Source: Candidatus Cloacimonadales bacterium
GTDB lineage: Bacteria > Cloacimonadota > Cloacimonadia > Cloacimonadales > JAIOQZ01
Assembly: GCA_963662655.2 (NCBI GenBank)
Contig: CAXXTU010000002.1
Span: forward strand, 2,560,001-2,624,000
Direction of reading: 5' to 3'
DNA length: 64,000 nucleotides
Below, in pieces: positions 3,228 to 39,816 of the stretch (its first letter is position 1; every line of letters begins with the position of its first letter). A program made the translations under genes and the position numbers. Under the pieces are notes generated by a model. That model made no database searches, had not been told where the DNA came from, and worked only from the letters and a program-made list of their open reading frames with translations.

Positions 3228-3246
3228 CCTCAGATTACGTTTTTTT

Positions 3247-3414
3247 GCCTGCGGTATTCGTGATGGGGTCTTGCAAATGAACCTAAGAACGTAGAGGGAA
3301 TCGAGCCTCGTGCGGCGCGCAAGCCGGACATGATCCGGATTCGTCAAGTGCGTAAGGTAGATACCCACCTTGTGTGGGGGTTCTGCGAGCAATATTTCAC
3401 ACGGTATCGCGGGT
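3247..3414 (+). ncRNA. ssrS: 6S RNA
   Basis: Closing stem GCCTGCGGTATTCGTG / CACGGTATCGCGGGT, internal GAACC...GGG / CCCACC...GGTTC pairings, ~170 nt, canonical zapA-rny position. Confidence 0.85.
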
Positions 3415-3563
3415 TTGCATTTTCCAGGCAATGTAAATCCTTTTGTCGATTATCGAGACATGCCTGAGCCGTTTTGGGAAATTTCTCCACATTGTCGACC
3501 TTTCGGGATACTGCGGGATTCCGGGCTGGCCTTGTGTAAATAAATCAAAGTGAGGTAATTGTA

Positions 3564-17320: not shown

Positions 17321-18288
17321 TTATTCTTTATACGTTCTAGTATACGCTTCATAGAGCAATTCTCCTAATTCCTTGTTACCGTTTACGTTGAGATGGCCTC
17401 TACCTTTGATTCTGTTATCTGGCCTTAGAACGGACTCAGATGTAAAGATATTTATCTTGTTTTCAATGCAATATTCTTCTAATAAATCATTCTCGTCTTT
17501 GTTGTTGTTGAATGAAACAATTAGGAAATCATCTCCATATCTCTCATGAAATTTCAGCAAGGTTTCTGGTAATCCTTTTGGAAGCTCTAAAATAATCTTT
17601 CTTTCCGACTCTTCCGCTTTTTCAACGCGATCTTGATTATCCAAATTGGTATTCGAAGTCAACCTGACAAGTAAACTGACTAAACTGGAAATCCTGCAAG
17701 CTTTTTTAGCTGGTATTTTGTATTTTGAACCAACTATCTTATTGCCAAAATTACTTGGTATCTCAAAATTCAAAGGAAAATCGTGACGTTGGAGCACTCT
17801 TTATGCAGTCCCTCAGTAATCAATATCACTCTATCCGGTTTGTAGAATCTCTCAAAAAAAAGTGATCGATATAGAGCAATATATGGATCAACGCCTGATG
17901 CACCTAGATTGAGTACAGAATATTGACTCTTCTGGGCATTAAGCAAGCCCTGGAAAACTCCAACGGCCGTCTTATCCCGTTCAACCTGTTGAGCATCAAT
18001 AAAAGACGATCCAAGAGCGAAAATAGTTTCTTGTGAATTCTCAATATCTACATCTGAGCTGTGTAATCCGATATTATTGTTTCGATATTTCCTATTGCCC
18101 CCCTCAACACTCCAATACTCAAAATAGGGTCCAAAAACACGTATTCCCTTAGCAACATTATCAAAAGGCATGAAAACGTATTTCTCTCCTCCTCTAGAAA
18201 TTGGGAAACCAATAACAAATCTTACTATCAGTTCAACCATCACGAGGGCAGTAACAATTCCCAGAATGACAATCAGCCCCTTTTTCAT
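17321..18288 (-). pseudogene. SGNH-like (DltD/AlgJ-like) protein C, split by a 1-nt deletion near 17795
   Basis: Two overlapping ORFs carry the N half (GSSFI, LNLGASG) and C half (GHLN). Adding one G restores HKEW-LQRHDFPLNF, matching W...PLDF in paralogues A and B. AT-rich. Confidence 0.75.
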
Positions 18289-19412
18289 CTGAACCACATC
18301 CAGCCGATGGTAACGAAGGTGAAGGTTATCGCACCCATCAGAACCTGATAGCCCATCGTCTTCGGTGTCTTGATTTTACGCTTGCGTTTGTAATAAATCC
18401 AGAGCTGGTAGACCGCGATGCCTGCCCCGTGCCAGATGCCCCAGTACATGAAATGCCAGGCCGCCCCATGCCAGATGCCGCACGCAGCCATTGTGATAAT
18501 GGGAACGCACACCAGCGACCAGATCACCTTACGGCTAACCCGGCTCAGCGGGAAGAAAAGGTAATCGCGAATCCATTCCGAAAGCGAGATGTGCCAGGTC
18601 GCCCAGAAACGGCTCATGTTGGTTCGGAAATAGGGATTGTTGAAGTTCTCCATGATTTTCAGGCCCAGGATTCTCGATGAGCCGATCGCGATATCCGAGT
18701 ACCCGGCAAAGTCGGTGTAAATCTGGATGGAATAGCCCAGTAGCGCGAGCGCTCTCATCCAGAAGGAAGCGCTGTCCCACCAGGGCTGTATGAAATAGCC
18801 GATCCAGTCGGCAATAACAAGCTTCTTGAAGAGGCCGAACACGATTCTCTGGAAGCCAATCCACACATTCTGCCAGCTCTGGTGATTTTCCTCAAGCTGG
18901 GGCTGGTAACGGGAAAAACGTTCGATGGGGCCGGCCACAAAGATTGTGAACAAGGAGCTGTAGCTCAGAAATTCCAGGAAGCTTCCGCGTTTGGCGATCT
19001 TCCAGTTGAGGTCGCTGAGGTAGCTGATATGCTTGAAGGTGAGGTATGATATTCCAAGGGGGAGCAGCAGGTTTTCGATACGGAAATCGGGAAGGCTGGA
19101 GACAAACTGAGCCAGGTGACTCAGGGTTCCCGATAGAAGTCCGAGGTACTTGAACGCAATGAGCGCTCCGAGGATCCCGATGATTCCGATTCGGAGGAAT
19201 ATCGCCTTCTTGTATCGATCCAGCAGCCAGGCGAACAGATAGGTCCATACGGTTATACAAAGCGTCACCACGGCGGCCGAGCGATCGAGATAAGCCACAA
19301 AGGCGAGGCTGGAAAGGCTCAGAAAGCCTACACGTATCTTACTCCAGGGAAGAATCCGATAAACGATCGCCACCAGAACAAGATACGCGAAAAAGGGAAG
19401 GCTGATAATCAT
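18285..19412 (-). CDS. MBOAT family O-acyltransferase (DltB/AlgI-like), downstream copy
   Basis: PLGISY.TF, VAGPIERF, GLFKKLVIAD, QIYTDFAGYSD, ENFNNPY, FWATWHISLS.W, GIWHG. Confidence 0.92.
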   Translation of the reverse strand: MIISLPFFAYLVLVAIVYRILPWSKIRVGFLSLSSLAFVAYLDRSAAVVTLCITVWTYLFAWLLDRYKKAIFLRIGIIGILGALIAFKYLGLLSGTLSHLAQFVSSLPDFRIENLLLPLGISYLTFKHISYLSDLNWKIAKRGSFLEFLSYSSLFTIFVAGPIERFSRYQPQLEENHQSWQNVWIGFQRIVFGLFKKLVIADWIGYFIQPWWDSASFWMRALALLGYSIQIYTDFAGYSDIAIGSSRILGLKIMENFNNPYFRTNMSRFWATWHISLSEWIRDYLFFPLSRVSRKVIWSLVCVPIITMAACGIWHGAAWHFMYWGIWHGAGIAVYQLWIYYKRKRKIKTPKTMGYQVLMGAITFTFVTIGWMWFR

Positions 19413-19421
19413 ATTGGTTGA

Positions 19422-19652
19422 TTAATATCTTTCGATGATCTCGATCATCTGGCGTACCGTGTCGAACGATTCCGCGGTTATTACCGGAGCGGGAATGCGT
19501 TTGCCAAACTCGGTCTCGATAAATTGCTGCAAGGAAACAAGGGAGAACGAATCGATCAGGCCGGACGAGATCAATTTCGTATCCACGTCGATGACTACAT
19601 CGTCTTCTTCCACAAACTCGTCGATTATGAATTCTATTAGCTTTTCTTGCAT
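19422..19652 (-). CDS. Acyl/aminoacyl carrier protein (DltC-like), downstream copy
   Basis: 76 aa, acidic, GLIDSF phosphopantetheine motif. Confidence 0.88.
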   Translation of the reverse strand: MQEKLIEFIIDEFVEEDDVVIDVDTKLISSGLIDSFSLVSLQQFIETEFGKRIPAPVITAESFDTVRQMIEIIERY

Positions 19653-19721
19653 GGTTGTCTCCTAGTATTTTTTGTTCCAAAAAGCCCGTCTGAGACCGAA
19701 TTGTAAAGAAAATTCTCGACT

Positions 19722-20708
19722 TCAGGCTTTCTTCTGGCGGTTCGGATAAGTCTTGCTAAATGCTTTCTCGAGTAGTTCGCCAAGCTTTTTATTGCCTTCA
19801 ACGTTCAAATGCCCTGCGCCATTGAAGCAGTTCTTCGGCTGCAAAACACTTTCATCCGAATAAAAGTGGATTCCGTTCTCTTCGCAGAAATCTTCCAGCA
19901 TTTTATTTTCTCGCGCATCGTTATCAAACGAGACCAGAAGGAAGTCGTCGCCGAAATCGTGTTGAAATTGCAAGAGTGTGCTTTTCAACTCATCCGTAAA
20001 TTCGCTATTAACATCAATGTCGGTTGCCGGGACCTCTTCGATCTCCGTATCTTGTTCATCCTTCATATTTTTAAGGAGATTAAAGAAAATTGTCGCGGCA
20101 CTAGACACTTCGGTTGCCTTCTCAACAATAAATCGGATTTTTGAGAAGTGGTGAGGTTCCCCAAAACGTGGAGGCAACGAAAAATCAAGGGGTGTCTTAT
20201 AGCGGGAAAGCCATCCAGCTCTCATATTCTCGATAGCTAAAACTACTTTATCTGGAGAGCGATACAATTTTGTGAAGAGCTTCACTCTGAGATAAGCAAG
20301 ATAAGGATCGTGGCCCGATGCTCCGAGATTCAATACGGAAAAATGCTTATCCAAATTATTCAATTTTCTATCGAATATAGCTGCGGCTGTTTCCTCGCAT
20401 CGAACCTGATATGCTTCGATATATGATGAACCTGCGAGGAATATCAGATTAGAATCTTCAGAAAGGTCGGAGTCGGGGCCATGCACACCAATATTGTTAC
20501 GTCTGAATCGCCTGTAGCCTGCTTCGACATTGACATACACAGAGTTTGGTTTATATAGATACACCTTACTGGCGCCTGAAAGGCCTGGATAGAAAACAAC
20601 GGCCTTTCGCGGTCCCAATGTCGGATAACCAGCGACATATCGAATGAGTAGTTCAACCACCACAAAGGCAGTAACGATTCCCAGAATGACAATCAGCCCC
20701 TTTTTCAT
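19722..20708 (-). CDS. SGNH-like membrane-anchored protein B (chimeric)
   Basis: N-terminal TM, GSSYIE, LNLGASG, GHLN; ATG overlaps the MBOAT stop (ATGA). Confidence 0.8.
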   Translation of the reverse strand: MKKGLIVILGIVTAFVVVELLIRYVAGYPTLGPRKAVVFYPGLSGASKVYLYKPNSVYVNVEAGYRRFRRNNIGVHGPDSDLSEDSNLIFLAGSSYIEAYQVRCEETAAAIFDRKLNNLDKHFSVLNLGASGHDPYLAYLRVKLFTKLYRSPDKVVLAIENMRAGWLSRYKTPLDFSLPPRFGEPHHFSKIRFIVEKATEVSSAATIFFNLLKNMKDEQDTEIEEVPATDIDVNSEFTDELKSTLLQFQHDFGDDFLLVSFDNDARENKMLEDFCEENGIHFYSDESVLQPKNCFNGAGHLNVEGNKKLGELLEKAFSKTYPNRQKKA

Positions 20709-21832
20709 CTGAACCACATCCAGCCGATGGTAACGAAGGTGAAGGTTATCGCACCCATCAGTACCTGATAGCCCATCGTCTTCGGCGTCTTGATCTTACG
20801 CTTGCGTTTGTAATAAATCCAGAGCTGGTAGACCGCGATGCCTGCCCCGTGCCAGATGCCCCAGTACATGAAATGCCAGGCCGCCCCATGCCAGATGCCG
20901 CACGCAGCCATTGTGATAATGGGAACGCACACCAGCGACCAGATCACCTTACGGCTAACCCGGCTCAGCGGGAAGAAAAGGTAATCGCGAATCCATTCCG
21001 AAAGCGAGATGTGCCAGGTCGCCCAGAAACGGCTCATGTTGGTTCGGAAATAGGGATTGTTGAAGTTCTCCATGATTTTCAGGCCCAGGATTCTCGATGA
21101 GCCGATCGCGATATCCGAGTACCCGGCAAAGTCGGTGTAAATCTGGATGGAATAGCCCAGTAGCGCGAGCGCTCTCATCCAGAAGGAAGCGCTGTCCCAC
21201 CAGGGCTGTATGAAATAGCCGATCCAGTCGGCAATAACAAGCTTCTTGAAGAGGCCGAACACGATTCTCTGGAAGCCAATCCACACATTCTGCCAGCTCT
21301 GGTGATTTTCCTCAAGCTGGGGCTGGTAACGGGAAAAACGTTCAATGGGGCCGGCCACAAAGATTGTGAACAAGGAGCTGTAGCTCAGAAATTCCAGGAA
21401 GCTTCCGCGTTGGGCGATCTTCCAGTTGAGGTCGCTGAGGTAGCTGATATGCTTGAAGGTGAGGTATGATATTCCAAGGGGGAGCAGCAGGTTTTCGATA
21501 CGGAAATCGGGAAGGCTGGAGACAAACTGAGCCAGGTGACTCAGGGTTCCCGATAGAAGTCCGAGGTACTTGAACGCAATGAGCGCTCCGAGGATCCCGA
21601 TGATTCCGATTCGGAGGAATATCGCCTTCTTGTATCGATCCAGCAGCCAGGCGAACAGATAGGTCCATACGGTTATACAAAGCGTCACCACGGCGGCCGA
21701 GCGATCGAGATAAGCCACAAAGGCGAGGCTGGAAAGGCTCAGAAAGCCTACACGTATCTTACTCCAGGGAAGAATCCGATAAACGATCGCCACCAGAACA
21801 AGATACGCGAAAAAGGGAAGGCTGATAATCAT
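20705..21832 (-). CDS. MBOAT family O-acyltransferase, upstream copy
   Basis: Same protein as 18285-19412 except one K/Q difference. Confidence 0.92.
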   Translation of the reverse strand: MIISLPFFAYLVLVAIVYRILPWSKIRVGFLSLSSLAFVAYLDRSAAVVTLCITVWTYLFAWLLDRYKKAIFLRIGIIGILGALIAFKYLGLLSGTLSHLAQFVSSLPDFRIENLLLPLGISYLTFKHISYLSDLNWKIAQRGSFLEFLSYSSLFTIFVAGPIERFSRYQPQLEENHQSWQNVWIGFQRIVFGLFKKLVIADWIGYFIQPWWDSASFWMRALALLGYSIQIYTDFAGYSDIAIGSSRILGLKIMENFNNPYFRTNMSRFWATWHISLSEWIRDYLFFPLSRVSRKVIWSLVCVPIITMAACGIWHGAAWHFMYWGIWHGAGIAVYQLWIYYKRKRKIKTPKTMGYQVLMGAITFTFVTIGWMWFR

Positions 21833-21841
21833 ATTGGTTGA

Positions 21842-22072
21842 TTAATATCTTTCGATGATCTCGATCATCTGGCGTACCGTGTCGAACGATTCCGCGGTTA
21901 TTACCGGAGCGGGAATGCGTTTGCCAAACTCGGTCTCGATAAATTGCTGCAAGGAAACAAGGGAGAACGAATCGATCAGGCCGGACGAGATCAATTTCGT
22001 ATCCACGTCGATGACTACATCGTCTTCTTCCACAAACTCGTCGATTATGAATTCTATTAGCTTTTCTTGCAT
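21842..22072 (-). CDS. Acyl/aminoacyl carrier protein (DltC-like), upstream copy
   Basis: Identical translation to 19422-19652. Confidence 0.88.
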   Translation of the reverse strand: MQEKLIEFIIDEFVEEDDVVIDVDTKLISSGLIDSFSLVSLQQFIETEFGKRIPAPVITAESFDTVRQMIEIIERY

Positions 22073-22141
22073 GGTTGTCTCCTAGTATTTTTTGTTCCAA
22101 AAAGCCCGTCTGAGACCGAATTGTAAAGAAAATTCTCGACT

Positions 22142-23125
22142 TCAGGCTTTCTTCTGGCGGTTCGGATAAGTCTTGCTAAATGCTTTCTCGAGTAGTTCGC
22201 CAAGCTTTTTATTGCCTTCAACGTTCAAATGCCCTGCGCCATTGAAGCAGTTCTTCGGCTGCAAAACACTTTCATCCGAATAAAAGTGGATTCCGTTCTC
22301 TTCGCAGAAATCTTCCAGCATTTTATTTTCTCGCGCATCGTTATCAAACGAGACCAGAAGGAAGTCGTCGCCGAAGCTCTTATGAAACTGAAGAATCGAT
22401 TCCTTCATCGCTTCGGGGAATCCGGGGATTCGGGCAATTTCTTTTGGAGCGTTACTTTCACTTTTTCTTCGCAGAATCGTATGGAGCGCGCGAGTCATAA
22501 GGTTTGCCAAATGAGATTTTTGTCTGACAGCTTCTTCAATCTTCACAATCAATCCCGGAGTTGCTGGTTCACCGAAGTTTTGTGGAATCGTGAAATCAAG
22601 AGGAGTCTTATACGGAACCAGCCACTCGTTGAACAGGCTTTCCACCGGCAGTATTACCTTGTCGGGTTGATAAATTCTCGCCAGGAACATCGTTCGGTAC
22701 CAGGCAAGATATGGATCATGCTTTGCTGCTGCCGCATTGATAACCCGGTATTTTCCCGGATCACTATCTTCCAGAAGCTTGTGGAAAACCGCCGTGGCAA
22801 TTTCATCCTGCGGTATATGGTAAGCTTCAATGAACGATGATCCTGCGACCATGATCGTTTGCTTGTCAGCATCCAGATCCACATCGTTTCCCGGAAGTCC
22901 CAGGTTGTTGCGACGATAGACATGGTTTCCGCCTTCCACCGCCCAGAATTTCGAATATGGTTCATACAGGATCAAAAGACGATTTTTACTGATTGAAGGA
23001 ATGAATCTTCGACGCTCGCGTCGCGATATCACTGGATAACCGATAACAGAACATGCGACTAGTTCCCCCAAAACAAGGGCCGTCACCAGCGCAGCGGTAA
23101 CAATCATTACATTCTTCATCTTCAT
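22142..23125 (-). CDS. SGNH-like membrane-anchored protein A
   Basis: N-terminal TM, GSSFIE, GHLN; C-terminal ~77 aa identical to protein B. Confidence 0.8.
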   Translation of the reverse strand: MKMKNVMIVTAALVTALVLGELVACSVIGYPVISRRERRRFIPSISKNRLLILYEPYSKFWAVEGGNHVYRRNNLGLPGNDVDLDADKQTIMVAGSSFIEAYHIPQDEIATAVFHKLLEDSDPGKYRVINAAAAKHDPYLAWYRTMFLARIYQPDKVILPVESLFNEWLVPYKTPLDFTIPQNFGEPATPGLIVKIEEAVRQKSHLANLMTRALHTILRRKSESNAPKEIARIPGFPEAMKESILQFHKSFGDDFLLVSFDNDARENKMLEDFCEENGIHFYSDESVLQPKNCFNGAGHLNVEGNKKLGELLEKAFSKTYPNRQKKA

Positions 23126-23226: not shown

Positions 23227-23403
23227 GACCCCGCTATCAATCGATGGCAACCTCCATCCCGCGCGCGGGGCGGCGTAGTAAGTCTTTTCAAGACTTACTG
23301 ACACGTTTTCCTTGCCGTGAGCGCTCACGGCAAAGAAAGCGTGCCGTTTGCCCTGCAAACACGCCGCCCCGGGCGCTGAGTCGGGCAAACCAATTCGAGG
23401 CTG
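23227..23403 (-). repeat. Structured intergenic element family A, copy 1
   Basis: Outer stem CGGGGCGGCGT / ACGCCGCCCCG enclosing hairpins at 23277-23299, 23302-23343 and 23346-23360 (GTTTGC-N3-GCAAAC); inverted relative to copies 2 and 3. Confidence 0.85.
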
Positions 23404-24198
23404 TCAAGTGTTTCGCAGGATAATCTTATGGAAGCGGCGCGTCAGGAACACGATCATGATGGTCGCGGCGATCATGAGCGACGACAGTGCGTTGATCGTG
23501 GTAATGGTTCCTCTGCGAATGCCGCCTTCCACGTATATGGGCAGCGTCGTGAAACCTCGCCCCGTGGTGAAGAAGGTGATGATGAAATCGTCGATGGAGA
23601 GGGTGAATGCCAATAGCGCGGCGGCGATAATCCCCGGCATCATCATCGGCAGCTTGATCTTGAAGAACGTCTGCCACGGGTTCGCACCTAAATCCATGGA
23701 CGCTTCCAGCAGGGAACTGTCAAATCCGTCCAGCCGCGACCGGATAACGATCACCGCATACGACAGACAGAACGTTACGTGAGCGATCAGGACAGTGAAC
23801 AGTCCCGTTTTCACGCGCAGGAAGCTGTAGAACATAGCCATGGAAACACCCATGAGAATGTCAGGCATGATAAGCGGAATGAACACCAGCACCGTTAGCA
23901 GTTTCCTGCCCTTGAACCGGAGATTCTCAAGGGCCAGCGCGCCAAGCGTACCGAGCACGGTGGAAATAATCGTGGAAAGGAACGCAATCAGCATCGTGTT
24001 GCGGAACGCAATCCGTATATTCTCGTTTTGCACGAGATCGATGTAATACTTGAACGTGAAGCCCTTCCAGCCTGCAACGATCTTCGAATCATTGAAACTG
24101 TATATGATCATGATCAGTATCGGGATGTATAGAAAAATCACCGCGAACGTGAATATCGTCAGGTTCATGCCCTTGTAAAACTTCTTGCTGTTTTTCAT
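23404..24198 (-). CDS. potC: Spermidine/putrescine ABC transporter permease
   Basis: FLYIPI...YSFN, EASMDLGA (EAA loop), FTLSIDDF. Confidence 0.88.
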   Translation of the reverse strand: MKNSKKFYKGMNLTIFTFAVIFLYIPILIMIIYSFNDSKIVAGWKGFTFKYYIDLVQNENIRIAFRNTMLIAFLSTIISTVLGTLGALALENLRFKGRKLLTVLVFIPLIMPDILMGVSMAMFYSFLRVKTGLFTVLIAHVTFCLSYAVIVIRSRLDGFDSSLLEASMDLGANPWQTFFKIKLPMMMPGIIAAALLAFTLSIDDFIITFFTTGRGFTTLPIYVEGGIRRGTITTINALSSLMIAATIMIVFLTRRFHKIILRNT

Positions 24199-25073
24199 TG
24201 GCGGCTCCTCTCCCGCTTGTATCTGCGAGTCAAAAAGAATAGAATCACACTCACCAAAACCAGAAGAACGAGCGATAGCGCGGATGCGACCGGCCAGTTA
24301 CGTGGTATGTTCTTGATTTTGTACGTGATGATCTGTCCAATGAACAGGGAGTTCTGATGCCCCACCAAGTGAGGGATGATGTAGGTTCCCAGCGCGGGAA
24401 TGAATACGAGGATGATGCCGGAGAATATCCCCTCTTTCGAAAGGGGAAGCGTAACCTTGAAGAAGGAAAGAACCTCGTTCGCACCCAAATCCTTCGCCGC
24501 ATCGAGAAGGGTGAAATCCATCTTCTCGATTGCGCTGTAGAGCGGAAAAATCATATAAGGCAAATAGACGTATACCGTTACGAGGATGACCGCGAAATCC
24601 GTACGAAGCAGCCTCAAAGGCTGGTCGATCATGTTCAGGAACAACAATAGCTCGTTGAGTACCCCGTTCGTGGAGAGGAACACCCTCCAGGAGAAGATGC
24701 GAATGATGAAGTTTGTCCAGAACGGAATGATGATGAGCAGCAGAAACGTGTTTTTAAATCTCGCGGAGCTCCTGGCGATGTAATACGCCACCGGATACCC
24801 GAGCAACAGGCACAGGAGCGTTGTCCAGAACGCCAGCCGGAACGCCAGCATGAACGGTCTCAAATACGTTGGACTGAACACCTGCCGGAACGCCTCCAGC
24901 GAGAATTGAAATTTCACATCGTAAATCGTTGTCGTCAGGAAGCTGTACAGAACGATGATAAAATACGGCACCAGGAAAAAGATGACCAGCCATGAAATGA
25001 CCGGCGCCGAAAGAATCCAGCTATGCGTATTCTTTTTCTTGTGAATTCGGACTTCCGTAGGTGTTCCAGCCAT
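24195..25073 (-). CDS. potB: Spermidine/putrescine ABC transporter permease
   Basis: GYPVAYY, IPFWTNFIIR, YLPYM, DAAKDLGA. Confidence 0.88.
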   Translation of the reverse strand: MAGTPTEVRIHKKKNTHSWILSAPVISWLVIFFLVPYFIIVLYSFLTTTIYDVKFQFSLEAFRQVFSPTYLRPFMLAFRLAFWTTLLCLLLGYPVAYYIARSSARFKNTFLLLIIIPFWTNFIIRIFSWRVFLSTNGVLNELLLFLNMIDQPLRLLRTDFAVILVTVYVYLPYMIFPLYSAIEKMDFTLLDAAKDLGANEVLSFFKVTLPLSKEGIFSGIILVFIPALGTYIIPHLVGHQNSLFIGQIITYKIKNIPRNWPVASALSLVLLVLVSVILFFLTRRYKRERSRQ

Positions 25074-26260
25074 TAGTCTCGCCTGTTCTCCGGATTGCTC
25101 TGGTCGAGGATATTGAGATCCTCCTTGCGGTAGTCCCCTTCCACCTCTTCGATGATGTGCGTATCGGTGTCATGCCAGTAAAGGTAAACTTCCTCATCCC
25201 AGTCGAGGGCTTTATCGTCGAAATAAACGCGTTTATGCTGATTGAACACCCGGAACCTGAGATCGTCCACACGCACGATGTACTGCGTGTGCGTTCCGAG
25301 GTAAAGGATGTCCTCGATAATCCCCGAAAGAACATTGAAGTCGTCCTGATCCTCCGGTTTTGTCCGGGAAATGGCGATCTTCTCCGGTCTGAGCGACACC
25401 GTTATATTCTGCCCAATCTCGGGGACGCGCTGGAAGGTGCTGTCGAACTCGAACCCCTCTCCCGTTTCGGTTTCATATCGCAGATCGACGTAATTATCCT
25501 CGATGCCCAGAACCTTCGCGGGGATCATGTTGGTATCGCCAATGAAGTAGGCGGAAAAAATCGAATTGGGACGTTCATAGATATCGTCTGGAGGGCCTTC
25601 CTGGATAATCTGCCCTCTATTCATCACCGCGATCCGGTCGGAGATACTCATCGCCTCGTCCTGATTGTGGGTAACGTAGATGAATGTAATACCCACCGCG
25701 TCGTGGATGTTCATGAGTTCGATGAGCATGTGCTGACGCAGCTTGAGGTCCAGCGCGGCAAGCGGTTCATCGAGAAGAAGCACCTCGGGGCGGTTGACCA
25801 GCGCTCTTGCGATGGCGATTCGTTGTTTCTGGCCCCCACTGAGCTGACGGGGATATTTTGCGTGCTGGTCTTCCATCTTGACCAGCTTCAGCATTTCCAT
25901 AACGCGGTCCTCGATTTCGTTCTTCCGGATTTTCTGAATGCGGAGTCCGAACGCGGTATTGTCGAAAACGGTCATGTGTGGGAATAGCGAGTAGTTCTGG
26001 AAGATCGTGTTGACCTTACGCTTGTATGCAGGGACTTCCGTGACGTCCTGTCCCGAAATGAAGATACGTCCCTGGGAAGGCACTTCGAATCCGGCTATCA
26101 TTCGCAGAAGCGTGGTTTTTCCACAGCCGCTGGGGCCGAGAAAGGAGTAAAGCTCTCCCTGCTCGATTTTCATGTTTACGTTGTCAACAGCCATCAATTG
26201 CTCAAACGCCTTGCTGAGATTCTCCAAACGTATCGCTTCCAATACTTTTCTCCTATTCAC
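25073..26260 (-). CDS. potA: Spermidine/putrescine ABC transporter ATPase
   Basis: GPSGCGKTT, LSGGQKQR, LLLDEP, TOBE tail. Confidence 0.9.
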   Translation of the reverse strand: MNRRKVLEAIRLENLSKAFEQLMAVDNVNMKIEQGELYSFLGPSGCGKTTLLRMIAGFEVPSQGRIFISGQDVTEVPAYKRKVNTIFQNYSLFPHMTVFDNTAFGLRIQKIRKNEIEDRVMEMLKLVKMEDQHAKYPRQLSGGQKQRIAIARALVNRPEVLLLDEPLAALDLKLRQHMLIELMNIHDAVGITFIYVTHNQDEAMSISDRIAVMNRGQIIQEGPPDDIYERPNSIFSAYFIGDTNMIPAKVLGIEDNYVDLRYETETGEGFEFDSTFQRVPEIGQNITVSLRPEKIAISRTKPEDQDDFNVLSGIIEDILYLGTHTQYIVRVDDLRFRVFNQHKRVYFDDKALDWDEEVYLYWHDTDTHIIEEVEGDYRKEDLNILDQSNPENRRD

Positions 26261-26353
26261 ATCATTGAAAACACGTGCGCAAAAGAAATGAACCGTCCAT
26301 TTTTACGCAATTCTTTTTTCAAACGATTTACCACGACAGAGGATGCTTAAAAC

Positions 26354-26395
26354 TGCAAAACCCCTCGACGGTTCTGCACGCCGAAGGGTTTTGCA
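26354..26395 (-). terminator. Probable terminator hairpin
   Basis: TGCAAAACCC...GGGTTTTGCA just downstream of the 26417-27580 gene. Confidence 0.6.
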
Positions 26396-26416
26396 TGAAA
26401 ATGGTACTCGGGGTCG

Positions 26417-27580
26417 TTAACGTATGTCTTCACCGCGATCTACGTAATCAATTGTGTTGATGGGTACAATCTGGTTCGTCTGGTCAATCTTGAAGACGTG
26501 CCAGACCGTCCCTTTCTTATTGGCCGGAACCTCAAAAGAGCCCATCAGCTTGTTATCGCCATACACCTGAACGCGTGCTCCGCTCGCTGAGAGTCGCCGG
26601 TTCCGGGAGGAATGACGATTGGAATAATCGTGAACAGCATAGTAGTAATCGCCCTTTGCCGGCTTGTAGATCGTGATGGTCTCCGGGCCATAGCTCGAGG
26701 TATCGTCGCGATCCAGGAAATCCTTCCCTCCGATCAGCATCTTGTGCCGGTACCAGATATGGAAATCTCCGCCGTCGGGATTCGGGCCCGAGAGATGGGC
26801 ATCCAGATCACGGGGACGAGATCCCCACGTCAGAACGATGCGGATGTTTTTGATTTCAGGGGTCATCGCGCATACAACTTCTCTCGGATTCTCGTCGAAA
26901 CCCATGTTGACGTTGAAGCTGCACGGTATGAAGCCATGTTTCTGAAACTGGAGCGTGTAATCTCCCGTTTCAACATCGGCCATGTAGATGCCTGCTTCAA
27001 CTTCCTTCAATTCGATGAGCTGATTGTCTGCGGATGTCGCTGCAACCTTCACATCCGGCAGGGGTTCTCCGGTAACGGCATGAACCGCCTGCGCGAGAAT
27101 GATCCGGTTCTTCGGAAAATATCGCAGCTCGGTATCAACCTCGCCTTCCGACACATCTAGTGTGAAGACCTTGCATACCATGCCGTACGAATCGGGGACT
27201 TCTATCGTCTTCACCGGAAAACCGTCTTTGTAAACCACGACTTTCGGATTGGCCCGTGCGATGAGCTCCATATCGGCGTTGATGTCCTGATCGCCGAACT
27301 TATCGCGTATCCAGAACGTGAAGAATCCATACTCGGACTCGATTACAAATTTCTGGCTGGCGTCCATGTCGCTTTCCTCGCCGATAGACTTGATCTTGCC
27401 ATCGAGCGCTGATTCCTTTGCAACGCCCTGCACAAATCCGTTTTCTTCGCCAATGGTTCCGCTCAAAACTCCGTTGAGGTCGCCTTCAAACTCGTCCCAG
27501 AGGAGCTCAACCTTCCAGGTTGCGCCATACAGCGCGAATACAAGAAGCATAACTGTTAGCAAGGCAATGTATTTCTTCAT
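26417..27580 (-). CDS. Exported protein with carboxypeptidase-regulatory-like and YfaP/DUF2135-like domains
   Basis: Signal peptide; IVLTW...DLDAHL..P, LDRDDTSSYGPETITI. Confidence 0.7.
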   Translation of the reverse strand: MKKYIALLTVMLLVFALYGATWKVELLWDEFEGDLNGVLSGTIGEENGFVQGVAKESALDGKIKSIGEESDMDASQKFVIESEYGFFTFWIRDKFGDQDINADMELIARANPKVVVYKDGFPVKTIEVPDSYGMVCKVFTLDVSEGEVDTELRYFPKNRIILAQAVHAVTGEPLPDVKVAATSADNQLIELKEVEAGIYMADVETGDYTLQFQKHGFIPCSFNVNMGFDENPREVVCAMTPEIKNIRIVLTWGSRPRDLDAHLSGPNPDGGDFHIWYRHKMLIGGKDFLDRDDTSSYGPETITIYKPAKGDYYYAVHDYSNRHSSRNRRLSASGARVQVYGDNKLMGSFEVPANKKGTVWHVFKIDQTNQIVPINTIDYVDRGEDIR

Positions 27581-27634
27581 AAGGCCCCCATTTATAAAAT
27601 AATCATCTGCAATTCGCTTCAATGTCAAGCTTTT

Positions 27635-28405
27635 TTAAGGTTTTACAGCCACATCAATTTCCGCAACAAGCAATCCATCCGTTAACAGAGGTTTCTGTGC
27701 AACCACCTTCCCATCCTTGTCAACTGCCCACGCTCCGCCGCAGTACCGGCTTCCGCCTTGATCTACATCAGACAGCAGGTTAACAGCAAGAACAGGTGAG
27801 TTTAAGCGCTGCCATCGTTCAAGATAGAACGGTAACTCCTCAACATCCCATTGATCCTGCAAGCCTTCATGATCCTTTATTGCCCTGGCAAATGGATAGA
27901 GAAATAGACCCGGCTTTACAGCATTGACCCGTTCGATCAGGCCGTCATCGAAAAGGTCTCCGCATATCAGAATGCCAATACGACCAAACGATGTGTCCAC
28001 AAACACTTCTTCATTTCCGCACCGGTAGACATTTGCAGGAAATACGGGATTATACCAGCCAGAACTTTGCCTGCGATAATGCAGAACATCGTTTCCGCCT
28101 TTATCGACGAGAAGATAGCTATCGTAAATAGACGATTCATCCCGCTCGATAAAGCCGAAGCCGACATAGATATCATGCACCTTCGCCAAGCTGCGAATCG
28201 CGACGATCTCATCATCTTCAATACTGTGCGCTTTCACGTAATCTTGCTCGGGAATCCCATTGATATCGAGTCCGGTGAGGCAAGTCTCCGGAAAGAGAAC
28301 CATATCGCATTCCCTGCCAGCAGCAATCGAAACACATCGCTCGATGCTTCGAAGCGTTGCACCGATTTCCTCTTCAAGCTTGAACACACACAGCGCTGTT
28401 TTCAT
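27635..28405 (-). CDS. Carbon-nitrogen hydrolase (nitrilase superfamily)
   Basis: VLFPE, GRIGILICGD. Confidence 0.85.
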   Translation of the reverse strand: MKTALCVFKLEEEIGATLRSIERCVSIAAGRECDMVLFPETCLTGLDINGIPEQDYVKAHSIEDDEIVAIRSLAKVHDIYVGFGFIERDESSIYDSYLLVDKGGNDVLHYRRQSSGWYNPVFPANVYRCGNEEVFVDTSFGRIGILICGDLFDDGLIERVNAVKPGLFLYPFARAIKDHEGLQDQWDVEELPFYLERWQRLNSPVLAVNLLSDVDQGGSRYCGGAWAVDKDGKVVAQKPLLTDGLLVAEIDVAVKP

Positions 28406-28450
28406 CCTACTCCTCACTCATGATCGAAATGCAGCTAGCTCAACGATAAT

Positions 28451-28620
28451 CAGTCTCGAATTCGCCCTTCCGACTCCGCGGCGGCGGCGTGTTTGCTTCG
28501 CAAACGACTCCCTTCCGATGCTGTTTTGGGTTTAACAGCATCGGAAGGGAGTCAGGAAGCCTTAGGCTTCCAACGCCGCCGCCGCGGGAGCGAGCTCGTC
28601 CCACCTCGAACAGCGGGATC
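28451..28620 (+). repeat. Structured intergenic element family A, copy 2
   Basis: Outer stem 28477-28490 / 28573-28586; hairpins at 28491-28505, 28506-28553 and 28555-28571. Confidence 0.85.
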
Positions 28621-28641
28621 ACTGGAGCAACAGGCATCTAT

Positions 28642-29562
28642 TTACGAAGCAGGTCTTTGATGTAATCGAGAAATCGATCCGAATTTCTCGTGAATGACCC
28701 CAGGATATCCCTCTGATTCTCGATCTGATCCTGCGCGCATTGAAGTCCCAGCCGATAAAAAGCGTCCGCCTTCATGAAGTCCCAGCCGATAAAAAGCGTC
28801 CGCCTTCATGAAGTCCCAGCCTTCCAGGCTCTCATCGTAGGCGGATATGAGGATGTCGGGCTGCGTATAGTTCAGGGAGCGCAGCGAAAGAAACGCCTGC
28901 ATGTATTCCGTGGAGCGAATGCCCTGATAAAACGACGTCGCCCTTTCCAGGTCTTCGTCGATTGCCACGATGCTTTCAGGATCGTATAGCGCAGTTTGAT
29001 TTTCGATGGGAGGCAGGACGTTGACGGCAATCACCTCGTACTTTTTATCGAATAGGCGTGCAAATTCAACCGGAAGCGGATACTGGATGCCGCCATCGAC
29101 AAACCGGTAATCGCCGTACTCGTAAGGCTTGAAGATGAAGGGTAGCGAACTCGACGCAATCATCGCGTCAGCGAGGTCGCCTTGATCGAAGAGAATCGAT
29201 TTCCTGCTTACGAGATCGAAAGCAACGGTGCGAAAAGGAATATGCAGGTACTGTATCTTGATATCGTGGGTTAGCTCGGAGAGGTAATCATGCAGCTTTG
29301 TGCGCCGTACAAGCCCACCCCGCACAACATCCATTTTCAGATAGGTAAGCATTTCGAGTGGATTGATGTCCTGAGCGAATTGCAAAATCTCGGTCGATTT
29401 GTAACCGCAGGCGTACAGGCCGCCGATGATCGAGCCCATGCTCGTGCCGATGATACCCCTGATGTCGTACGCCTTCTCGACCGCTTCCAGAACTCCGATA
29501 TGGGCAAAGCCCCGCGCCGCGCCGCCACCTAAAACCACTATTGCGGATTTTTTTGTTGCCAT
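28642..29562 (-). CDS. Patatin-like phospholipase (RssA-like) with C-terminus altered by a 34-bp duplication
   Basis: GGGAARG, GTSMG, DGG motifs. Confidence 0.9.
   Translation of the reverse strand: MATKKSAIVVLGGGAARGFAHIGVLEAVEKAYDIRGIIGTSMGSIIGGLYACGYKSTEILQFAQDINPLEMLTYLKMDVVRGGLVRRTKLHDYLSELTHDIKIQYLHIPFRTVAFDLVSRKSILFDQGDLADAMIASSSLPFIFKPYEYGDYRFVDGGIQYPLPVEFARLFDKKYEVIAVNVLPPIENQTALYDPESIVAIDEDLERATSFYQGIRSTEYMQAFLSLRSLNYTQPDILISAYDESLEGWDFMKADAFYRLGLHEGGRFLSAGTSMRAGSDRESEGYPGVIHEKFGSISRLHQRPAS
28741..28821. repeat. 34-bp tandem repeat, 2 full copies plus 13 bp
   Basis: TGAAGTCCCAGCCGATAAAAAGCGTCCGCCTTCA at 28741 and 28775, then TGAAGTCCCAGCC at 28809. Confidence 0.97.
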
Positions 29563-29652
29563 CCGAACCTCAATATTCCATATTACGATTAATTAGATAT
29601 CTTACGGATTTACCGTATAGCGTAACTCAACATGCTTTGTCAAGGCGGAACA

Positions 29653-31188
29653 ATGAAGAAGGTGATTCGGTTACTCATTATTACGCTTCTACTGGCTGTC
29701 GCGATCTGGCTCTCTATCACCCAATATACCATACATGCCCAAAGTATCACAACCAGAATCATTCTATATGTCTATAACACCGTCATCGCTTTGACAATCA
29801 TCACCATCCTATACACGCTGGTGAGAGAAAACCGAGATCCGAGAAGCAGCCTGGCGTGGATTCAAGTGTTGCTTTTTCTGCCCATCATCGGGGTTGTGCT
29901 TTATCTTGTATTTGGCGTGAATTTCCGTAAACGGAGACTTTTTGCCCGTAAAATGAAAGACGATGAGGATGAGATCAATCGATCCATAGCGCCGGTAACC
30001 GGAGAAATCGGGCTTCTCGAATCTCAAAACCATCTCCTCGAACAGAACAAGCTTTCCCGTCTGCTCTACTACCATAGCAATGTTACGATCGCCGTACGGA
30101 ACACCGTATCCGTAATCGATAGCGGCAAGGAAGCCATCGACAGGATGCTGGAGGAGATGGAAAGAGCAAAGCACCATATTCATATCGAGATGTTTTCGAT
30201 TATATGGGATACGACCGGTAAGCGAGTGCTCGATCTGCTCGAGCGGAAAGTGAAAGAAGGCGTCACCGTTCGTGTGATCTTCGATGCGGTCGGTAGCTGG
30301 ACGCTTTGGAGTTGGCGAATTCGCAAATTGAAAAAAGCGGGGATCAAAATCGTTCCGTTCTTCCCGGTTCGTTTCCGCCTTTTCGCGCATCGGGTGAATT
30401 ACCGCAATCATCGCAAGCTTGTGATCGTCGATGGGAAAACAGCCTTTATCGGGGGCGCGAATATCGGGAACAAATACTACGACCTGAACCGATACTTCGG
30501 TCACTGGCGCGACACAGTCATGCGGATTCAAGGGGACACGACCTACACGCTTCAGAAAATGTTCCTGCTCGACTGGTTTTTCGCCAGCAACGAGCGTTTT
30601 GCTTTAGGCGACTACTTTCCGGCGCATGAAATTGATAATCACCTGGAGATGCAAAACGTAGCGTCCGGTCCGGATACTGCGTGGGAGAACATTCTGCAAG
30701 CCTATTTCATGCTGATAACCGGAGCTGAACGTTATTTGTGGATCACAACTCCGTACCTGATCCTCGATGAAAGCCTTCTCACCGCACTCTGCACGGCCTC
30801 GCTAAGCGGTGTCGATGTACGTATCGTCGTTCCCGGAAAGCCCGAGCATTGGGTGCTCTGGTTCGGCAATCGCTCGTACTTCGACGAGCTCATGCGTGCC
30901 GGAATCAAGATTTACCTCTACAATAACGGCTACACGCACGCCAAGGTTATTATTACCGACGACAAGATCGCGTCCGTGGGAACGGCAAATCTCGATCTCC
31001 GGAGTTTGCGCCTGAATTTCGAGGTCAATTCGATCGTCTATGACGAAGCATTCACACGCAAAATAAGGCGTCAGTTCGAGAACGATTTCAAGCATTCCGA
31101 TTTTGTCGATCCGGAAACGTTCCAGCAAAGAAATGTGCTGCACAAAGTGGCGGAATCGGTTTCGAGGTTATTCTCTCCCCTGCTTTGA
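29653..31188 (+). CDS. cls: Cardiolipin synthase
   Basis: N-terminal TMs (PLDc_N); two HKD motifs: NHRKLVIVDG and HAKVIITDD...GTANLD. Confidence 0.93.
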   Translation: MKKVIRLLIITLLLAVAIWLSITQYTIHAQSITTRIILYVYNTVIALTIITILYTLVRENRDPRSSLAWIQVLLFLPIIGVVLYLVFGVNFRKRRLFARKMKDDEDEINRSIAPVTGEIGLLESQNHLLEQNKLSRLLYYHSNVTIAVRNTVSVIDSGKEAIDRMLEEMERAKHHIHIEMFSIIWDTTGKRVLDLLERKVKEGVTVRVIFDAVGSWTLWSWRIRKLKKAGIKIVPFFPVRFRLFAHRVNYRNHRKLVIVDGKTAFIGGANIGNKYYDLNRYFGHWRDTVMRIQGDTTYTLQKMFLLDWFFASNERFALGDYFPAHEIDNHLEMQNVASGPDTAWENILQAYFMLITGAERYLWITTPYLILDESLLTALCTASLSGVDVRIVVPGKPEHWVLWFGNRSYFDELMRAGIKIYLYNNGYTHAKVIITDDKIASVGTANLDLRSLRLNFEVNSIVYDEAFTRKIRRQFENDFKHSDFVDPETFQQRNVLHKVAESVSRLFSPLL

Positions 31189-31315
31189 CGTCTTCATATG
31201 GGATTCACCACACCTATGAATTTCTTTCATATTTTTATTGTAAAAAATGTTGGATTCCCGTATACTGGTTGTTTCAATAGAATCAAATAGAGCGAGATCG
31301 TTTTCAGGAGGATTC

Positions 31316-32668
31316 ATGCAGACATATATGACTAAGATCGAAGAAATTATGCAGAAGAACGGACTTGACCGGATCGTAATCGATACGTTCGGGGAATATT
31401 ACAAGCAGGTAATGGATGGAGCAACGGGAAAGCTGACCCGGAACGAGATCGTCGCTCCGGGCGACGGAAATGTAGAACGTTACGAAGCGCTCACCGATCA
31501 GAATCAGGATTACCTAGACCAACTCGTTTTCGTAAAGCTCAATGGTGGTCTCGGTACCAGCATGGGACTGACAAAGGCTAAATCGCTACTTCCCGTAAAG
31601 GATGGCTTGACCTTTCTCGATATCATCGCAAAGCAAGTCATTCACTTGCGCGAATCGACAGGGAAATCGATACCGCTCCTTTTCATGAACAGCTTCAACA
31701 CGAGGCAGGACACACTTGAATACCTTTCGAAGTTCGCAGCTTTACCGCTGAACGGCCTCCCGCTCGACTTCGTTCAGAACAAGTTCCCGAAGCTCGTGAA
31801 GGAAACGCTCGAGCCGCTACAGAGTCATAACGACAGCCAGAACTGGAATCCTCCCGGACATGGCGACATCTACATGGCAATGGCGATCTCGGGAATCCTG
31901 GACATGCTTCTGGAAAAGGGGTATCGCTACATGTTCGTATCCAACTCCGACAACCTCGGGGCCGTCGTCGATGAGAAAATCCTGACATGGTTCGCGGATA
32001 ACGACATCCCCTTCGCGATGGAGGTCTGTCAACGGCTGGATGTGGATAAAAAAGGGGGGCATCTCGCCCAGGATCGAAACGGTCAGCTTCTCCTGAGAGA
32101 AAGCGCGCAATGTCCCGAAGACGAAGTTGACGAATTCCAGAACACCAGTCTGTACCGATGGTTCAACACCAACAATCTGTGGATCAATCTCGAAGCGCTG
32201 AAAGCCAGGTTGAACGAGAACAACAATGTCTTGCTCCTGCCGCTCATTCTCAACCCGAAGGACGTGGACGGTACTCCGGTGTATCAGATCGAGACCGCCA
32301 TGGGCGCGGCAATCGGCGTCTTCGAAGGAAGCAAGGCCATCGCCGTTCCCCGAAGCCGTTTTGCCCCGGTGAAGAAGACGAATGATTTGATAACGATATG
32401 GTCGGATGCATACCAGTTGGATGAAGCCTTTTGTATCCGTCTTGCCGAGGGGGTCGAGAAGGTCCCGTCCGTCCAGCTCGACGATCGCTATTACAAAATG
32501 ATCGGCGATCTGCTGAAGTATTTCAAAGACGGAATTCCGTCCCTGAAAGAATGCGACCGGCTTCAGATCGAAGGCGAGATATTCTTCGGACCGGGTGTCG
32601 TAATAAAAGGGTCCGCACGGCTTAAAGCGGAAGTCCCTACCCGTTTGGAAAACATCACGATCGACTAA
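31316..32668 (+). CDS. UTP--glucose-1-phosphate uridylyltransferase, eukaryote-like UDPGP family
   Basis: KLNGGLGTSMG..KAKS, MNSFNT, WNPPGHGD, SNSDNLGA, FNTNNLW, RFAPVK. Confidence 0.9.
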   Translation: MQTYMTKIEEIMQKNGLDRIVIDTFGEYYKQVMDGATGKLTRNEIVAPGDGNVERYEALTDQNQDYLDQLVFVKLNGGLGTSMGLTKAKSLLPVKDGLTFLDIIAKQVIHLRESTGKSIPLLFMNSFNTRQDTLEYLSKFAALPLNGLPLDFVQNKFPKLVKETLEPLQSHNDSQNWNPPGHGDIYMAMAISGILDMLLEKGYRYMFVSNSDNLGAVVDEKILTWFADNDIPFAMEVCQRLDVDKKGGHLAQDRNGQLLLRESAQCPEDEVDEFQNTSLYRWFNTNNLWINLEALKARLNENNNVLLLPLILNPKDVDGTPVYQIETAMGAAIGVFEGSKAIAVPRSRFAPVKKTNDLITIWSDAYQLDEAFCIRLAEGVEKVPSVQLDDRYYKMIGDLLKYFKDGIPSLKECDRLQIEGEIFFGPGVVIKGSARLKAEVPTRLENITID

Positions 32669-32686
32669 ATTCTGTCGCTCTACTGG

Positions 32687-32860
32687 CAGCCAAACCTGAG
32701 TCGTAAGCCCGACTCAGCGCGGGGCGGCGTGTTTGCCCCGCAAACGACTCCCCCGAGGTGTTGGAGAATCCAACGCCTCGGGGGAGTCCGGAAGCCTTAG
32801 GCTTCCGACGCCGCCCCGCGCGGGAGCGCGCGCATCCCAGCATCGATCAGCGGAATCCCA
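32687..32860 (+). repeat. Structured intergenic element family A, copy 3
   Basis: Outer stem GCGCGGGGCGGCGT / ACGCCGCCCCGCGC; hairpins GTTTGC-ccc-GCAAAC, GACTCCCCCGAGG...CCTCGGGGGAGTC and GGAAGCC-tta-GGCTTCC. Confidence 0.85.
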
Positions 32861-39701: not shown

Positions 39702-39816
39702 GCACCTTCGCCCGTTCTCCCCTTGCCACGTGGTGTTTCACAGCGTAGCTTCTACATCCATTTCCTTACGGAGCTGTGGTATATCCACGTGGCAAGGGGA
39801 GAACGGGCGAAGGTGC
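39702..39816. repeat. Structured intergenic element family B, copy 1 (32-bp perfect inverted repeat)
   Basis: GCACCTTCGCCCGTTCTCCCCTTGCCACGTGG at 39702-39733 and its exact reverse complement at 39785-39816. Confidence 0.9.

Follow-up and report, generated by a model that had tools for sequence, protein, structure and literature searches.

In the 64-kb stretch of the Candidatus Cloacimonadales bacterium genome analysed here (the window; source genome G000, main contig C2), three intergenic copies of a folded repeat, which we name copies 1, 2 and 3, belong to a real and apparently undescribed repeat family, family A, with a REPIN-like way of working and a new four-way architecture. The explanation that we favour, with a probability of roughly 0.6, is that family A is a non-autonomous DNA repeat which travelled in the form of folded single-stranded DNA (ssDNA), mobilised by an HUH-type enzyme acting in trans and no longer encoded in G000. 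It builds on the copy number of the family, its predicted fold, its freedom of orientation, the empty syntenic sites in related genomes and the absence of known tag sequences.

Family A is a large repeat family built on a predicted four-way junction

The G000 genome (3.81 Mb in two contigs, 98.95% complete) contains 78 copies of family A, 77 retrieved by iterated nhmmer and one by a covariance model; searching the whole genome by profile and covariance model, a check named by the original prediction (made from the letters of the window), thus gave a family larger than the three copies first reported. Anatomy was counted in the 71 copies that could be parsed among the 77 nhmmer matches, two being truncated and four having escaped the parser. 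The core measures 99–203 nt and consists of a GC-rich outer stem (P1, 8–24 bp) that encloses a hairpin (P2), a palindrome (P3) and a third arm (P4). P2 is a 6-bp hairpin, with GTGCGC as its commonest arm (39 of the 71 parsed copies), and P3 is a palindrome of ~20 bp whose arms reach at least 15 bp in 56 copies. P4 has a conserved foot; first described as a short arm, it is indeed short at its tip in 33 copies but carries an insert of 40 nt or more in 37. The predicted four-way junction is tight, with a median of two unpaired bases in the parsed copies. Beyond the core, the element continues into a weak lead, which has a YYCGRR motif ~30 nt before the core, and into a weak tail; pairing between the lead and tail of the same copy is no more frequent than in permuted pairs. 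Perfect 15-bp hairpins number 53 genome-wide, and 41 of them lie inside family A. The motifs originally called invariant are real, but characterize a subfamily only: CCGACTC is found in 13 of the parsed copies, 8 have the GTTTGC form of hairpin P2 and 11 the AGCGG tail.

All 78 copies lie between called genes, according to the gene calls made in this analysis. The neighbouring genes of 77 copies are convergent in 22 cases (an excess over the 14% expected), co-directional in 22, divergent in 19 and opposite in 14, and there is no replichore bias (15 copies on the plus and 17 on the minus strand of one replichore, 21 and 22 on those of the other). Closeness to a stop codon, claimed for the family from its first three members, holds for these three but is not general, with facing stops within 40 nt in 19 of 44 and 10 of 37 cases.

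A second hairpin repeat, family B, which has a long bulged stem with variable paired arms, is represented in the window at 39702–39816 and by 152 nhmmer matches genome-wide, with 16 matches at E<1e-3 in 2.4 Mb of congeners. Family B is replication-oriented (112 vs 34 on C2), whereas family A is not; just as xerC is followed by a copy of family A, xerD is followed by one of family B. The two families never occur in the same intergenic region (0 vs 6.5 expected, P=0.001), and no flanks shared between them were found.

The three copies of the window

The three copies were found at the coordinates first given, all of them intergenic and near a stop codon, and they fold as described. The fold z-score is −12.1 for the core of copy 3 as DNA and −12.8 for copy 2 as RNA, with none of 200 shuffles equally stable, and nowhere else on contig C2 do three copies fall within 10 kb.

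Copy 1, with its lead and tail of weak conservation, occupies positions 23227–23403 on the minus strand and follows closely on the stop of an ABC permease gene (23404–24198, minus strand). Read along its own strand, it consists of the 5′ arm of P1 (23361–23371), hairpin P2 with the loop AGG in place of the family's usual TNC (23346–23360), the long variable palindrome P3 (23302–23343), P4 in its short form (23277–23299) and the 3′ arm of P1 (23266–23276). The short arm of this copy had been described as completely different from those of the other two; this is not so, as copy 1 shares the P4 foot.

Copy 2, on the plus strand at 28451–28620, is flanked by genes for a carbon-nitrogen hydrolase and a patatin, both on the minus strand. 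The arms of P1 (28475–28490 and 28573–28588) enclose P2 with the loop TTC, a GAA triloop on the other strand (28491–28505), a perfect 20-bp P3 (28506–28553) and a short P4 (28555–28571). Copy 3, also on the plus strand (32687–32860), separates convergent UDP-glucose pyrophosphorylase and AcrB-family genes. It is composed of the P1 arms (32717–32730 and 32808–32821), P2 with the loop CCC (32731–32745), again a perfect 20-bp P3 (32746–32788) and P4 in its short form (32789–32807).

The window further harbors a 6S RNA (3243–3419) and a 1.7-kb direct duplication of a two-gene unit (18230–19955 and 20650–22375, 99.5% identical). In its 3′ part, the patatin gene contains 34 nt duplicated exactly in tandem (28741–28808); this duplication is either real or an assembly artefact, the short-read contigs of the source sample breaking there.

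Variable arms, covariation and the level at which family A acts

The P3 arms are all distinct, with a median identity of 27% between copies (56 copies), and their stems are 97% paired (39 mismatches in 1,235 positions). When 25 copies were aligned without fitting, both sides were changed in 33 of 46 pairs, which is above all 500 shuffles and above every slid control; the shuffles do not control for the relatedness of the copies. The triloops of P2 are far more uniform: 53 of 67 read TNC, i.e. GNA on the other strand, and 58 of 67 are GNA on one strand or the other. Among the 14 deviant loops, five are GNA on the top strand and thus exact inversions of TNC (P=0.002). A motif in the P4 tip likewise occurs forward in six copies and inverted in two, the inverted two representing one duplicated copy.

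Template switching, by which compensatory changes arise without selection, leaves inverted loops and compensation at several bases as its signatures (PMC8794818, consulted in part). The inverted loops suggest that template switching has operated here, so that covariation alone does not prove selection and perfect arms need not be selected. The original claim that selection acts on structure is borne out in part only: the covariation is strong, but template switching could have produced the compensatory changes without selection. The sequence conservation of P1, P2 and the P4 foot would be the better sign of selection or of recognition by a protein. The idea that P3 and P4 hold captured or guide sequences was tried and rejected: they do not match their own flanks (60, 300 or 2,000 nt), and elsewhere in the genome they find matches at the level of composition only.

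The evidence points to family A acting at the DNA rather than the RNA level, because its copies are placed without regard to the orientation of genes or of replication, G·T mismatches and A·C mismatches are of comparable number, and its GNA triloops are of the DNA type. Mismatches in P3 are G·T in 15 cases and A·C in 10, and in P3 and P4 together in 22 and 13 (P=0.18), i.e. with no significant G·T excess. As for the loops, the DNA mini-hairpin d(GCGNAGC) is of unusual stability and its RNA counterparts are less stable (PMC13037366, in the part consulted). That family A is an undescribed structured RNA, or a stabiliser in 3′ untranslated regions, acting as a transcript, appears to us quite improbable. 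The very stable RNA fold and the strong covariation, unmatched in 500 shuffles, would suit such a role, and with 19 of 44 upstream stops no more than 40 nt away, many copies are probably transcribed. Their orientation is nevertheless independent of transcription, the mismatches in P3 and P4 show no G·T excess over A·C, the loops fit the DNA motif, and the family is confined to one genus and expanded in one species. Comparison with Rfam, named beforehand as a possible refutation, returned no credible match on family A at the gathering threshold or at E-value level, the weak ones falling far below thresholds, and only the 6S RNA in the window. The structured-RNA option of the original prediction is thus not supported, in view of the absence of transcription orientation and of a G·U bias, the DNA-type GNA triloops and the single copies in congeners.

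Distribution among relatives and signs of mobility

We compared G000 with three congeners (G115, G116 and G117), two genomes of the sister genus (G118 and G119) and an outgroup at the queD site (G120). Each congener holds one family A copy, a looser pattern returning background there. A strict pattern run over 232 genomes of the phylum matched only in genus g1, and the covariance model run over 151 genomes of the order found G000, G116 and G117 only, with 19 candidates scored per genome; it missed the known G115 copy, so diverged forms may escape it. Viral contigs gave no family A match, nor did plasmids and phages with one query each. One of eight matches in a genome collection is the G117 copy and the other seven, on reading, lack the rest of the structure; both metagenome matches look like chance and lie within coding DNA.

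Empty sites in relatives, a check proposed along with the original prediction, were seen at two places. Upstream of queD, the site is filled in G115 and G117, and syntenic but empty in G000, G116 and the outgroup G120. Conversely, the site at C2:2900520 is filled in G000 and the syntenic junction is empty in G117. Over 120 nt, the sole G116 copy shares 91% identity with one in G000, and its neighbouring genes have no counterpart in G000; related copies within G000 also stand in unrelated flanks. That family A is mobile is implied by the empty syntenic sites and by the 91%-identical copy among unrelated neighbours. The contigs of the source sample run through the three window copies and do not differ there; a joint from which a whole copy is missing was not seen among them, although contigs cannot show absence.

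Two observations were made in passing at these sites. The QueD homologues of the sister genus (L297 in G118 and L298 in G119) each have one in-frame TGA in a full-length match, possibly encoding selenocysteine. Beside the copy at C2:2900520, a highly conserved non-coding stretch (C2 about 2,900,690–2,900,790) is nearly identical in G117 within diverged surroundings, and is probably a structured RNA gene.

The copy shared by G115 and G117 upstream of queD sits at the same site and is intact, with different P3 and P4 arms and diverged flanks. Its persistence bears on the idea that family A is a domesticated, host-kept DNA signal, one per operon boundary (a nucleoid, topoisomerase or transcription-insulator site), which spread in the past and whose fold is now under selection. 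This copy has stayed intact across about 19% protein divergence; moreover, only 2 of 77 copies are clearly truncated, the family is enriched between convergent genes (22/77), and family B is excluded from its intergenic regions. The congeners, however, get by with a single copy, perfect stems can be maintained by template switching on its own (PMC8794818, in the part consulted) and no binding protein was identified, and we hold domestication to be unlikely.

Search for a helper enzyme

The original statement that no transposase is present was extended from the window to the genome: Y1/RAYT transposases (PF01797; RAYT, REP-associated tyrosine transposase; REP, repetitive extragenic palindromic sequence) are absent from G000, as also found by tblastn and hidden Markov models with 17 relatives' proteins. 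The congeners carry 2–6 Y1 loci each, 11 in all, none of them flanked by family A. When these loci are grouped by eye into seven independent sites, four have a flanking gene that faces family A in G000 (P about 0.02, post hoc), which shows shared landing sites and not a shared enzyme. The congener RAYT/Y1 loci L039, L040, L042, L047, L051, L055 and L056 lie at junctions that are broken in G000, with family A on one side.

Other classes of enzyme gave no helper either. IS110 and TnpB were not found in G000, and PF04986, the Y2 transposase domain of IS91-like rolling-circle elements, had no match there, the control genomes giving nothing either. The tyrosine recombinases of G000 are XerC, XerD and integrases of prophage regions; no integron integrase was found, four of the six tyrosine recombinase matches having been scanned and all falling below the TIGR02249 cut-off. 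The sole reverse transcriptase, DRT/Abi-like (L037:1141–2700; C2 about 981,000–982,600), is broken by one stop codon, scores below all cut-offs and lies ~10 kb from the nearest family A copy. The sole DDE_Tnp_1 locus has no family A copy, and neither do the 18 GIY-YIG loci of G000 and five relatives have a family A match. A third repeat, family C, forms SRM/REP-like dimers (34 motif matches) that flank a broken small GIY-YIG (Ssn-like) gene (L248:1100–1900; C2 about 884,700–885,500), and G117 has an intact homologue of this gene with the same family C repeats.

Insertion sequences (IS) of the ISL3 type were considered as helpers and rejected, since their ends are unlike those of family A and they are merely inserted in A/T runs next to two copies; the IS3-like locus of G000 was left out of this comparison of ends. 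G000 has twelve near-identical complete ISL3-like copies (one of them at C2:2159256–2160602) and a partial one. Two are situated 13–19 nt away from family A copies, and three no more than 65 nt away from copies of family B, all in A/T runs. At C2:2239172, a duplicated and circularly permuted piece joins the left part of an IS to 329 bp of flanking DNA and a copy of family A.

A probable helper acting in trans

Movement as ssDNA, the module recognised and the class of the helper are the parts of our explanation that we infer. A helper acting in trans would read a conserved module composed of P1, the GNA mini-hairpin P2 and the P4 foot, and would ignore the long arm P3 and the P4 tip. These two would drift to random identity, while template switching would keep them paired and sometimes flip their loops. 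The helper, supplied in trans and probably lost since, would most likely be an HUH/Y1 enzyme (RAYT-like), because the congeners keep several of these and G000 has none. Copies would persist only at transcription-unit boundaries, which may also be where the genus reshuffles its gene order.

A number of observations weigh against this explanation. No helper was found, and among the 19 Y1 loci of the taxonomic family none has a family A copy within 1.5 kb; the ten whose flanks were inspected mostly carry unrelated repeats of their own. The tags of REP sequences (PMC3733652, in the part consulted) do not mark family A: within 35-nt windows of the 71 parsed copies, GTAG/CTAC occurs in 3 leads and 7 tails and CGTC/GACG in 11 and 13. 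The flank profiles show no sharp element ends; with intergenic DNA too diverged (genes are 75–79% identical), the exact ends cannot be fixed. Target duplication was not found, direct repeats of 4–6 nt numbering 935/221/43 as compared with 915/251/48 in permuted pairs. With a median pairwise score of 0.04, most copies are old; the two most similar ones come from the ISL3-linked duplication with its 329 bp of flank rather than from a clean jump. Copies 1 and 3 of the window lack a GNA loop, the shared-site copy of G115 and G117 suggests local retention or function rather than pure selfishness, and the G116 copy could sit on a mis-binned contig (3% contamination).

Element junctions and gene-order breakpoints

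We compared the junctions occupied by family A with the gene order of G117, of which 1.6 of 3.9 Mb could be used, so that 47 of the 78 element junctions are testable. Only two of the 47 keep their neighbours in G117 (one under a stricter distance limit), whereas 14.6–16.4 would be expected to do so, going by junctions of matching orientation and gap that lack the element (P 1e-7 for 16.4). Convergent junctions, which always separate independent units, are conserved in 7 of 69 cases, a rate from which 2/47 does not differ significantly (P=0.13). Family B junctions show the same trend (10/72 vs 23.7 expected), and the repeats of G117 itself sit at broken junctions (42 of 301 sides, compared with 2 of 396 at conserved ones). 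Where an adjacency is broken, its partner end has a family A copy in 4 of 38 cases, close to the 9% background, and neither A/A nor A/B pairing across the two ends of a breakpoint is enriched. G000 is the outgroup of the genus (about 76% protein identity vs 81% among the others) and is modestly more shuffled, with 34% of adjacencies conserved vs 40–50% among the congeners.

These data raise the possibility that family A is a rearrangement joint, i.e. that its folded ssDNA mimics a Holliday junction, is processed by the host RuvC and XerC/D and is inserted at breaks or causes them, with no dedicated transposase. The scarcity of conserved junctions, the tightness of the four-way junction, the RuvC, XerC and XerD homologues of G000, one copy beginning 5 nt past xerC, and the mutual exclusion of families A and B would all be in line with this, and IS insertion into existing breaks has been proposed (PMC11708052, in the part consulted). 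The rate of conserved convergent junctions, the same trend for family B and for the repeats of G117, the rarity of family A at partner ends and the small excess of shuffling in the outgroup G000 speak against it. Permissive operon boundaries, used by repeats and rearrangements alike, are the simplest reading and explain the link about as well as causation, and we regard the rearrangement joint as unlikely, though slightly less so than domestication. A bolder version, which we find a little more doubtful than either, would make family A an orphan, transposase-free mobile element: an immobile Holliday-junction mimic with the GNA mini-hairpin as a handle and a self-renewing random palindrome for one of its arms, inserted by host resolvases at breaks, whose copies would mark and help to make the reshuffling of operons.

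Discussion

The way in which short palindromic repeats spread in bacteria has been settled for RAYT-linked REPs only, and for Ssn repeats it is suspected. Family A has a different architecture and no recognisable helper, and under the trans-helper reading it would separate the parts that are read (P1, the GNA hairpin and the P4 foot) from those that are free (P3 and the P4 tip), which provides ready substrates for an enzyme hunt. It further illustrates that inverted and DNA-type loops can accompany near-perfect covariation, which is commonly read as proving a functional RNA. If the link with breakpoints were causal, family A would represent a transposase-free route to genome reshuffling.

We found no description of family A in the full-text literature; supplements were outside the scope of this search, and those of PMC3733652, PMC11893778 and preprint 10.64898/2026.10.21.760802 could list it. 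A term search of that preprint gave no match for family A.

Among known systems, retron msr-msd differs from family A, which has no adjacent retron reverse transcriptase. Integron attC sites keep their structure with little sequence conservation, fold as ssDNA and have variable terminal parts. In family A, by contrast, no more than 5 of 71 leads or tails have the R″/R′ consensus boxes, an integron integrase was not found, copies are not oriented with replication, and the flanking genes are ordinary core genes. Prokaryotic miniature inverted-repeat transposable elements resemble family A in being small, non-coding and intergenic, with a stable fold and an inverted repeat that closes the element (PMC10969869, in the part consulted); the inverted repeat of family A is however sub-terminal, GC-rich and co-varying, no target duplication accompanies it, and its ends differ from those of the ISL3 elements of G000. 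The Ssn-related motifs (SRM) of Neisseria (NTS/dRS3), which work with Ssn GIY-YIG nucleases, are also dispersed intergenic hairpin repeats read as ssDNA, but none of the 71 parsed copies matches the SRM string published in the consulted part of PMC11893778, and no GIY-YIG locus of G000 or the relatives carries family A.

The REP/REPIN-RAYT system differs from family A in that a REPIN consists of two inverted REPs forming one hairpin (PMC3337134, in the part consulted) instead of an asymmetric four-way junction, and in that no RAYT is present in G000 and none is flanked by family A in the relatives. The lack of a conserved GTAG end, as originally predicted, is borne out over the 71 parsed copies, and no position of GTAG or CGTC is conserved in the flank profiles. 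The two systems have in common that they are extragenic, present in many copies with lineage-specific abundance and without target duplication, fold as ssDNA and have arms that are different yet paired, the spacers of REPINs being all different yet paired (PMC3337134 and, for the likeness as a whole, PMC3733652, both in part). The option of an ssDNA-folded, non-autonomous and REP/REPIN-like element, already put forward in the original prediction, is thus supported by 78 dispersed copies and empty sites, with no tag and no transposase found, and it is to this system that family A comes closest in its way of working.

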